Source: Escherichia coli
Lineage (GTDB): Bacteria; Pseudomonadota; Gammaproteobacteria; Enterobacterales; Enterobacteriaceae
DNA: 64,000 nt
NCBI RefSeq assembly: GCF_003334785.1
Contig: NZ_QOWV01000004.1
Direction: 5' to 3' (one strand)
The notes below the pieces were generated by a model. It worked only from the letters and a program-made list of their open reading frames with translations, did no database searches and had not been told where the DNA came from. Position numbers and translations under genes: made by a program. This document shows, one piece after another, positions 37,259 to 38,286 of the stretch. Each line of letters begins with the position of its first letter. Position 1 is the first letter of the stretch.

Positions 37259-37279
37259 GCCGGATGCAACGCATCCGGC
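37259..37279. repeat. Short perfect palindrome (REP-like hairpin) between convergent fadH and higA
   Basis: GCCGGATGC-AAC-GCATCCGGC; no flanking T tract. Confidence 0.5.
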
Positions 37280-37287
37280 ACGTCGCG

Positions 37288-37704
37288 TTAATCAATAAAC
37301 AAGGCGGGAGAAATGCCGAATCGCGTTGCCAATTTTTTAGCGTGTTCCAGCGTTAATTTCCTCTTCCCGCTCAAAACGCGTGACACCATAGATTTACTGC
37401 CAATTTCCGGCAGATCGGAAAGGGTTAAACCATATTGATCCATAAGGGTACGAATCACGGCTATACCGCCAGGCATGGCTTGAGCCATGGCATTAAATTC
37501 CGCAAATTCGGGCGCTGATTCTTCCCACGCGGTTATTTTGGCACACACCAGATCCAGCAAGGGGTTTTCAGGATCGTTGAGCAGCAGATGATCTACCAGT
37601 TCCAGCGCCTGGGTGTATTGTTCCTCGTTCTGAATACCCGCCAGAAAAGGTGCCACAGCAGTTAGCTTTTCTCCTGCTTGCAAGATGTCGGCAATCGCAA
37701 TCAT
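37288..37704 (-). CDS. higA: Antitoxin HigA (HTH-XRE)
   Basis: 138 aa; C-terminal HTH (LSDLPEIGSKSMVSRVLSGKRKLTLEHAKKLATRFGISPALFID); overlaps higB by 4 nt. Confidence 0.9.
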   Translation of the reverse strand: MIAIADILQAGEKLTAVAPFLAGIQNEEQYTQALELVDHLLLNDPENPLLDLVCAKITAWEESAPEFAEFNAMAQAMPGGIAVIRTLMDQYGLTLSDLPEIGSKSMVSRVLSGKRKLTLEHAKKLATRFGISPALFID

Positions 37705-38015
37705 TTTTTCCCCTTAGTACGATGAACAGCGGTAAAGAAATCGTATTCTTTATGCGTCATAACTTCACGTATGTAGCACTTTTGCGATTCAAAAAAGACC
37801 ATTGCTACAACACGTAATTCATTGCCCCCAACATTGAAAACATAATGCTTATCCAGATATTTGAAGTTATCCAGAGATGGGAATACTGCTTTTAATGACT
37901 CAGGTTTTTTGAAATATCCCTTAGCAATCGTGTTCCCCAGAGCCACCAACTCCGTTTTATGTTGCGGGTATTTTTCCGCAGCATCTTTCAATGCTTTTTG
38001 AGTTATCAGGTGCAT
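37701..38015 (-). CDS. higB: Toxin HigB (RelE/ParE-superfamily mRNA interferase)
   Basis: 104 aa, MHLITQKALKDAAEKYPQHK...; toxin-first gene order; AT-rich. Confidence 0.9.
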   Translation of the reverse strand: MHLITQKALKDAAEKYPQHKTELVALGNTIAKGYFKKPESLKAVFPSLDNFKYLDKHYVFNVGGNELRVVAMVFFESQKCYIREVMTHKEYDFFTAVHRTKGKK

Positions 38016-38027
38016 TCTTCATCACGT

Positions 38028-38046
38028 CCGTTGACAAATTGGCAAT
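38028..38046. promoter_or_regulatory. higBA operator candidate 1 (imperfect inverted repeat)
   Basis: CCGTTGACA-aat-TGGCAATAT, 13 bp upstream of the higB ATG. Confidence 0.6.
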
Positions 38047-38056
38047 ATGATAACAT

Positions 38057-38077
38057 CCGTTGCCAGATTGGCAACGG
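38057..38077. promoter_or_regulatory. higBA operator candidate 2 (perfect 9-bp arms)
   Basis: CCGTTGCCA-gat-TGGCAACGG. Confidence 0.65.
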
Positions 38078-38195
38078 ATGAATTTATCTGTGTGACGGAA
38101 GAATAAACGTAGAAAAACGCTAAACAAGAGAATGTAGACGATGGTGACAGGGATTTTTTGTTTTATGGAAGCGCGATTCCAGAACTGGGCAGACA

Positions 38196-38286
38196 TTGCC
38201 GGATGCGACGTTTGCCGCGTCTTATCCGGCCTGGAGTAACGTGCTGAACGTAGGCCGGATAAGGCGTTTACGCCGCATCCGGCAGG
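38196..38286. repeat. BIME (two inverted REP units) upstream of higB
   Basis: GCCGGATGCGACGTTTGCCGCGTCTTATCCGGCC and GTAGGCCGGATAAGGCGTTTACGCCGCATCCGGCAGG. Confidence 0.85.

Follow-up and report, generated by a model that had tools for sequence, protein, structure and literature searches.

Is the higBA module of Escherichia coli, a toxin-antitoxin gene pair on AT-rich DNA that is bracketed by palindromic repeats, a recent arrival at the site it occupies, or has it long been resident there? This question was addressed in a stretch of 64,000 nt of E. coli DNA (assembly GCF_003334785.1, contig NZ_QOWV01000004.1), referred to below as the window. A preliminary description of positions 37259-38286 had suggested that the module was inserted into a repeat-rich intergenic site. 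The analysis reported here leads to a different conclusion. The locus is very probably the higBA (ygjNM) operon of E. coli K-12, a chromosomal toxin-antitoxin system of type II, and an old resident of the rlmG/fadH junction.

The identity of the gene pair leaves little room for interpretation. The window is DNA of E. coli K-12 MG1655. A 2.2-kb query around the locus is 100% identical to strain MG1655 and related strains, where RefSeq annotates fadH, higA, higB and rlmG. As the preliminary description had recognized, the toxin gene precedes the antitoxin gene in one operon, and the two reading frames overlap by 4 nt (ATGA, 37701-37704). HigB is identical over its full length to PDB entries 5IFG_A and 6KML_A, and HigA to 5IFG_B, 6KML and 6JQ4. 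Crystallized E. coli HigB/HigA structures with full-length identity comprise 5IFG, 6KML/6KMQ, 6JQ4 and 6IRP, and 5YCL is nearly identical. HigB matches the Pfam family HigB_toxin (PF09907, E = 4.4e-22), which places it in the RelE/ParE (BECR-fold) superfamily. HigA harbors a C-terminal HTH_3 domain (residues 84-135, E = 2.5e-7), a helix-turn-helix (HTH) of the XRE type. Pfam assignment, identity to the PDB entries and the literature agree on a type II toxin-antitoxin module. A search of NCBIfam with both proteins returned no model above its cutoff. The equivalog model TIGR02607 (antidote_HigA), which represents the Rts1 type, gave 18.7 bits for HigA (E = 0.0011) and thus remained below the cutoff of 47.7 bits. 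K-12 HigA shares a name with this family, but not membership.

The biology of the operon has been described in detail. Christensen-Dalsgaard et al. named the locus higBA and demonstrated that HigB is toxic and neutralized by HigA, that mRNA is cut by HigB only when it is translated, that HigA represses the higBA promoter in lacZ fusions and that induction of higBA requires Lon (PMC2814082). In that paper, primer extension also detected a single promoter upstream of higB and no start upstream of higA, and inverted repeats at the promoter were drawn as putative binding sites. According to later reviews, the promoter palindromes are bound by HigA as well as by the HigBA complex (PMC11980606), with similar strength (PMC11869752, citing Jadhav 2020). 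The toxicity assay and the HigA-binding check that the preliminary description had proposed are therefore already part of published work (PMC2814082, PMC11980606, PMC11869752). Its toxin-antitoxin and operator reading is correct, but already established and not new. Nothing is added here to the toxin-antitoxin locus itself, as publications already cover its genes, promoter and autorepression as well as its structures and DNA binding.

The age of the module at its present position was assessed by comparison with other genera. Relatives were taken from a search of species-representative genomes, which relied on exact 8-residue words and gave 4 loci, and from protein relatives. Apart from E. coli and Escherichia sp. 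E1V33, four taxa showed the gene order rlmG-higB-higA-fadH. Nucleotide identities to K-12 are 0.965 for higB, 0.942 for higA, 0.942 for rlmG and 0.930 for fadH in E. whittamii; 0.775, 0.767, 0.833 and 0.794, respectively, in Kluyvera georgiana; 0.749, 0.743, 0.838 and 0.789 in Citrobacter sp. Ct235; and 0.660, 0.679, 0.814 and 0.790 in Enterobacteriaceae bacterium 89. The identity of the module follows that of the flanking genes and is somewhat lower at larger distances, which fits vertical descent with faster evolution and not a recent transfer. The pattern expected of a recent islet, i.e. absence from the junction in relatives and divergence uncoupled from the flanks, was not found in the four taxa. 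These alignments suggest that the module occupied the rlmG/fadH junction already in the common ancestor of Escherichia, Kluyvera and Citrobacter.

The only taxon with the opposite pattern is Escherichia sp. E1V33 (L005), in which higB and higA are 100% and 99.8% identical to K-12, compared to 93.8% for fadH and 96.6% for rlmG. This pattern indicates that E1V33 recently obtained the module from E. coli by recombination. Cedecea davisae (L012, L013) harbors a 60%-identical higBA elsewhere, between a gene for a heavy-metal P-type ATPase and a tusA-family gene, with recognizable counterparts of the two operators discussed below. The different site indicates that, over a longer timescale, the family has changed its position at least once. 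A 474-bp low-coverage contig labelled Pseudomonas khazarica (L006, NZ_SBHZ01000041.1) is 100% identical to E. coli higB and probably represents contamination of that assembly. Only distant relatives were detected in the phage collection. Relatives on plasmids are mostly 33-40% identical; the single 100% match (H91, NZ_CP141089.1) is a 4.9-Mb record with a K-12-type higB and evidently a chromosome mislabelled as a plasmid.

The palindromic repeats on both sides of the module, which had been noted in the preliminary description as a hairpin and a bacterial interspersed mosaic element (BIME), are genuine elements of the repetitive extragenic palindromic (REP) class, the left one as a remnant. The right BIME shows the typical features: it is extragenic and consists of an inverted pair of imperfect palindromes of about 35 nt, and its two REP types recur in the window with 7 and 3 matches versus 0 expected. 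Folded as RNA it reaches -58.6 kcal/mol (z = -7.6). When Rfam was searched at a permissive threshold, the only matches were those of the BIME to naRNA4, a REP-derived family, all of them sub-threshold. The left hairpin folds as minus-strand RNA at -22.6 kcal/mol (z = -3.5); it was not called as an intrinsic terminator, as the T-run is absent. Its origin is explained by E. whittamii, whose higA-fadH spacer harbors a complete two-REP BIME with outer ends that match the arms of the K-12 hairpin. The K-12 hairpin is thus read as a collapsed BIME, which would have retained the outer arms of two inverted REPs and lost the interior, and it qualifies as a REP/BIME element only as a 21-nt remnant, not as a full REP pair. 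In E. whittamii a full BIME is located on each side of the module (L007, 3728-3830 and 4729-4826). The two are directly oriented and share 42 identical nt followed by 28 matches in 31. In K-12, short direct REP repeats, GCCGGATGC(A/G)ACG, lie at both module ends, 939 bp apart. Neither Kluyvera georgiana nor Citrobacter sp. Ct235 contains a REP/BIME of this kind on either side of the module, from which we infer that the repeats came after the module. The flanking palindromes are REP/BIME elements, not insertion scars. Just upstream of fadH (34700-35200), REP copies of both types form a further dense cluster with at least four members, and the list of open reading frames (ORFs) is full of typical REP-derived pseudo-ORFs there.

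Within E. coli the locus exists in several forms. Among 5,426 complete genomes, the segment comprising higB and its promoter was found in 2,848 and the higA segment in 4,377. By subtraction, about 52% of the genomes carry the full locus, about 28% (approximately 1,529 of 5,426) only higA, and about 19% an empty site. A query for the junction gave 2,556 genomes versus 2,578 expected; it joins the higA-only and empty alleles and confirms only their sum. The higA-only allele results from a 325-bp deletion, through which codons 1-79 of higB are lost together with the promoter and the two operators. In all ten sampled genomes (L002, L014-L017, L020-L024), which represent varied backgrounds including ABU 83972 and O111 and O78 strains, the deletion has the same junction and higA is intact. 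In the empty sites, a single BIME lies in the interval from fadH to rlmG, and at least two sequence versions of it were seen. These sites most likely represent the expected product of recombination between two directly repeated BIMEs, and repeated deletion accounts better than insertion for the patchy distribution of the module in E. coli. Two partial alleles show that further decay variants of the locus exist: strain MEW (H65) retains only bases 124-261 of the higB-promoter query, and in strain CP61_Sichuan (H90) the higA query is matched only by its first 104 bases, which correspond to the 3' end of the gene (37288-37391) and are annotated there as an HTH-domain protein. An orphan higA between fadH and rlmG was earlier reported for two B2 strains, CFT073 and NRG857c (PMC7232551). 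What is added here is a count across the species, the finding of one common 325-bp junction and the BIME-flanked empty site.

The frequency of the higA-only allele raises the possibility that it is more than a product of decay, and that selection keeps the orphan HigA for a toxin-independent task such as regulation of other genes or protection against incoming HigB-type addiction modules. Besides its presence in more than a quarter of the complete genomes and the intact frame in different backgrounds, this is suggested by the finding that the deletion occurs on two higA backgrounds that have diverged from each other, whose haplotypes differ at up to 8 synonymous and 0 nonsynonymous positions. 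Variants private to one class occur at a synonymous to nonsynonymous ratio of 5:3 that is equal in orphan and intact classes, a value obtained from a small sample of recombining haplotypes. However, the deletion eliminates both operators and the only mapped promoter, a promoter scan of the deletion allele finds no promoter-like site, and the founding paper detected no promoter of its own for higA (PMC2814082). Moreover, the sample is small and intact K-12 differs by 1 nt from the deleted haplotype L002, which indicates recombination of deleted with intact alleles, so that the synonymous differences may predate the deletion. Cross-neutralization of plasmid-borne HigB relatives is doubtful at the low identities given above. 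A selected role of orphan HigA is therefore possible, but rather unlikely; if it exists, higA would be expressed by read-through from rlmG. Two modest extensions are conceivable, for which the odds are likewise on the low side: directly oriented BIMEs on both sides would have turned the module into an excisable cassette in Escherichia that was repeatedly deleted by BIME-BIME recombination, and the 325-bp deletion allele may persist through a toxin-independent role of orphan HigA.

Much less probable is the view underlying the preliminary description, namely that higBA is a recently acquired foreign islet in a pre-existing REP/BIME-rich fadH-rlmG spacer, with the palindromes marking the site. 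The composition at first agrees with it. The AT-rich character of the module that the preliminary description had noticed was confirmed by a scan against the flanking genes: the GC content is 0.39-0.42 over higB and the promoter region (37600-38200) and 0.54-0.59 in the flanks. The higB gene alone has a GC content of 0.38, compared to 0.54-0.57 in the adjoining genes, a deviation as expected for a recent islet. At third codon positions (GC3) the values are 0.38 for higB and 0.49 for higA versus 0.64-0.65 for rlmG and fadH. Direct REP repeats at both ends, the whole or partial absence of the module from about 48% of E. coli genomes and the commonness of distant relatives on plasmids are also in line with an insertion. 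However, the low GC content is retained in every lineage (0.38-0.46 for higB in all compared taxa, with flanks of 0.54-0.61), which characterizes it as a durable property of the module and not as a sign of recent arrival. The identical junction and gene order in four other taxa, together with a divergence parallel to that of the flanking genes, largely refute a recent acquisition, and the Kluyvera and Citrobacter modules occur without such repeats. In addition, the module differs by up to about 1.8% between E. coli lineages and has therefore been diverging within the species. No ORF for an integrase or transposase was found between fadH and rlmG and no tRNA in the region 30000-45000. The insertion into a repeat-rich site thus did not hold. 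Of the two observations that would have spoken against it from the outset, presence at the same junction in relatives was largely found, whereas uniform composition with the flanks was not, as the module is AT-rich.

The promoter region was analyzed for the sites at which autorepression might act. A promoter scan revealed one strong promoter-like site on the coding strand, consisting of TTGCCA, a 16-nt spacer and TG-n-TATCAT (38074 to 38047), with 10 of 12 consensus matches. Two related palindromes, designated O1 and O2, are positioned around it. The -35 hexamer TTGCCA (38074 to 38069) forms one half-site of O1, and O2 starts immediately downstream of the -10 hexamer and spans the expected transcription start region. 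The preliminary description had proposed two inverted repeats at 38028-38077 as autoregulatory operators, and sequence, cross-genus conservation and the literature agree with this assignment (PMC2814082, PMC11980606, PMC11869752). The repeat corresponding to O1 is indeed perfect, and its 12-nt arms around a loop of 3 nt even exceed the described length. The one corresponding to O2 is poor as a 9-3-9 repeat and holds as a 7-3-7 core, GTTGACA-AAT-TGGCAAT, which has 2 mismatches to GTTGCCA-N3-TGGCAAC. With up to 2 mismatches allowed, this motif occurs in the window only at O1 and O2, whereas 0.43 matches are expected by chance. Additional GTTGCCA half-sites inside higA were dismissed as chance level, since roughly 8 matches to a 7-mer per 64 kb are expected (an estimate, not a computed value). 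O1 and O2 are parts of a 25-nt direct repeat with 84% identity and lie 29 bp apart.

The conservation of these sites was examined in an alignment of promoters from E. coli, E. whittamii, Kluyvera georgiana, Citrobacter sp. Ct235, Enterobacteriaceae bacterium 89 and Cedecea davisae. Half-sites are retained, as is the distance between O1 and O2, whereas the surrounding bases and the 3-nt spacers vary, a pattern of protein-binding sites and not of an RNA stem. E. coli, E. whittamii, Kluyvera and Citrobacter share the same O2 sequence, which is recognizable in Cedecea. The O1 half-site at 38069-38075 reads TGTCAAC in place of TGGCAAC in O157 EDL933, in four other sampled intact E. coli alleles, in E. 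whittamii and in Escherichia sp. E1V33. By this comparison the perfect O1 palindrome is a variant of the K-12 lineage. The TGTCAAC version, which also stands in O2, makes O1 and O2 near-identical 19-nt direct repeats. At the permissive threshold the operators match no Rfam family, and the spacer between O1 and the right BIME yielded neither an Rfam match nor a promoter-like site. That the O1 palindrome serves mainly as an RNA or DNA hairpin, e.g. by terminating or blocking plus-strand transcription, rather than as a protein-binding operator, is hardly credible and was rejected: a terminator scan flags it on the plus strand (12 pairs, T-containing tail), but it overlaps the -35 hexamer of the mapped promoter (PMC2814082), no plus-strand gene ends there, the half-site is conserved across genera and the stem extension is not, TGTCAAC breaks the pairing without a compensating change, and binding of HigA to promoter palindromes has been reported (PMC11980606).

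From these data the following picture of the operon and its history emerges. One sigma-70 promoter drives higB and then higA, whose translation is probably coupled via the ATGA overlap. HigB acts as a ribosome-dependent mRNA endonuclease that cuts mRNAs under translation, and HigA binds and neutralizes it. By its C-terminal HTH, HigA also represses the promoter, presumably by occupying the two related 17-bp sites 29 bp apart, with O1 covering the -35 hexamer and O2 abutting the -10 hexamer and covering the start region; the contacts of each protein with individual half-sites are conjectural. Degradation of HigA by Lon, under amino-acid starvation or chloramphenicol, derepresses the promoter and frees HigB. 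BIMEs would have colonized both flanking spacers in Escherichia after the module was in place. The fadH-side BIME presumably collapsed to the K-12 hairpin, and recombination of two directly repeated BIMEs most likely gave the empty sites. Several points weigh against an old residence of the module with repeated loss and against HigA-bound operators. Only four chromosomal contexts outside E. coli were compared, which leaves out Salmonella, Klebsiella, Enterobacter and other Escherichia species. Vertical descent implies many losses, and the AT-richness persists despite the long residence. The empty-site allele L004 is not a simple crossover of the present-day K-12 repeats. Finally, O1 and O2 are regarded as the sequences bound by HigA on the basis of review statements and conservation.

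Features of the higBA locus in the window (strand given where assigned)
Feature	Position	Strand	Remarks
Left hairpin GCCGGATGC-AAC-GCATCCGGC	37259-37279		REP-derived; between the fadH and higA stop codons; unique in the window
higA (ygjM)	37288-37704	-	138 aa; antitoxin and autorepressor; ORF list, RefSeq, Pfam HTH_3
higB (ygjN)	37701-38015	-	104 aa; ORF list, RefSeq, Pfam HigB_toxin PF09907, UniProt P64578
325-bp deletion of the higA-only allele	37779-38103		junction ambiguous by 1 nt; removes higB codons 1-79, promoter, O1 and O2
Operator O2	38030-38046	-	coding strand ATTGCCA-ATT-TGTCAAC; motif match
-10 hexamer TATCAT	38047-38052	-	upstream TG (extended -10); TATGAT in Kluyvera and Citrobacter
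Operator O1	38054-38080	-	core GTTGCCA-ATC-TGGCAAC at 38059-38075; perfect 12-3-12 palindrome in K-12
Module-specific upstream DNA between O1 and BIME	38081-38196	-	absent from empty sites; 38104 onward kept in the higA-only allele
Right BIME	38197-38284		two inverted REPs, 38198-38231 and 38254-38283; flanked by the rlmG stop codon and the promoter region of higBA

The locus provides a concrete case in which low GC content and patchy distribution wrongly suggest a recent acquisition, although the module has held its chromosomal position across genera. It also draws attention to REP/BIME elements as likely substrates for the loss of this module; the direct BIME pair of E. whittamii could excise the higBA cassette by homologous recombination. 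The orphan higA allele is widespread and might be used as a natural test of the question whether there is a reason for antitoxins to outlast their toxins.

With respect to known systems, the pair is the same as E. coli K-12 HigB-HigA (YgjN-YgjM; P64578; 5IFG, 6KML, 6KMQ, 6JQ4, 6IRP), as proteins and locus are identical and no difference was found. The prototype of the 'host inhibition of growth' modules, HigBA of Rts1 from Proteus vulgaris, resembles it in the toxin-first operon, a ribosome-dependent mRNA-cleaving toxin of the RelE/ParE type and an HTH antitoxin with two promoter operators (PMC11980606, PMC12266136). The toxins, however, belong to different families, PF05015 in Rts1 and PF09907 in K-12. 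K-12 HigA further differs by its score below the TIGR02607 cutoff and by the position of its HTH at the C terminus, and the Rts1 module is located on a plasmid whereas K-12 higBA is chromosomal. The mqsRA operon and other E. coli operons of reverse order likewise start with the toxin gene and are repressed by the antitoxin via promoter palindromes (PMC7167474). In contrast to higA, for which no separate promoter was detected (PMC2814082), mqsA has extra promoters inside the toxin gene. The toxin family of mqsRA, PF15723, is also different.

The higA-only allele also resembles the decay of the chromosomal ccdO157 module in E. coli, in which the toxin has reportedly decayed or been lost while the antitoxin is kept. 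The orphan higA of CFT073 and NRG857c corresponds to the higA-only allele in that the toxin was lost and the antitoxin kept at a fixed chromosomal site in a lineage-dependent manner (PMC7232551). The flanking repeats resemble other REP/BIME elements of E. coli in being extragenic, in forming inverted pairs and in having copies elsewhere in the window, and only the fadH-side copy of K-12 differs from them as a 21-nt remnant.

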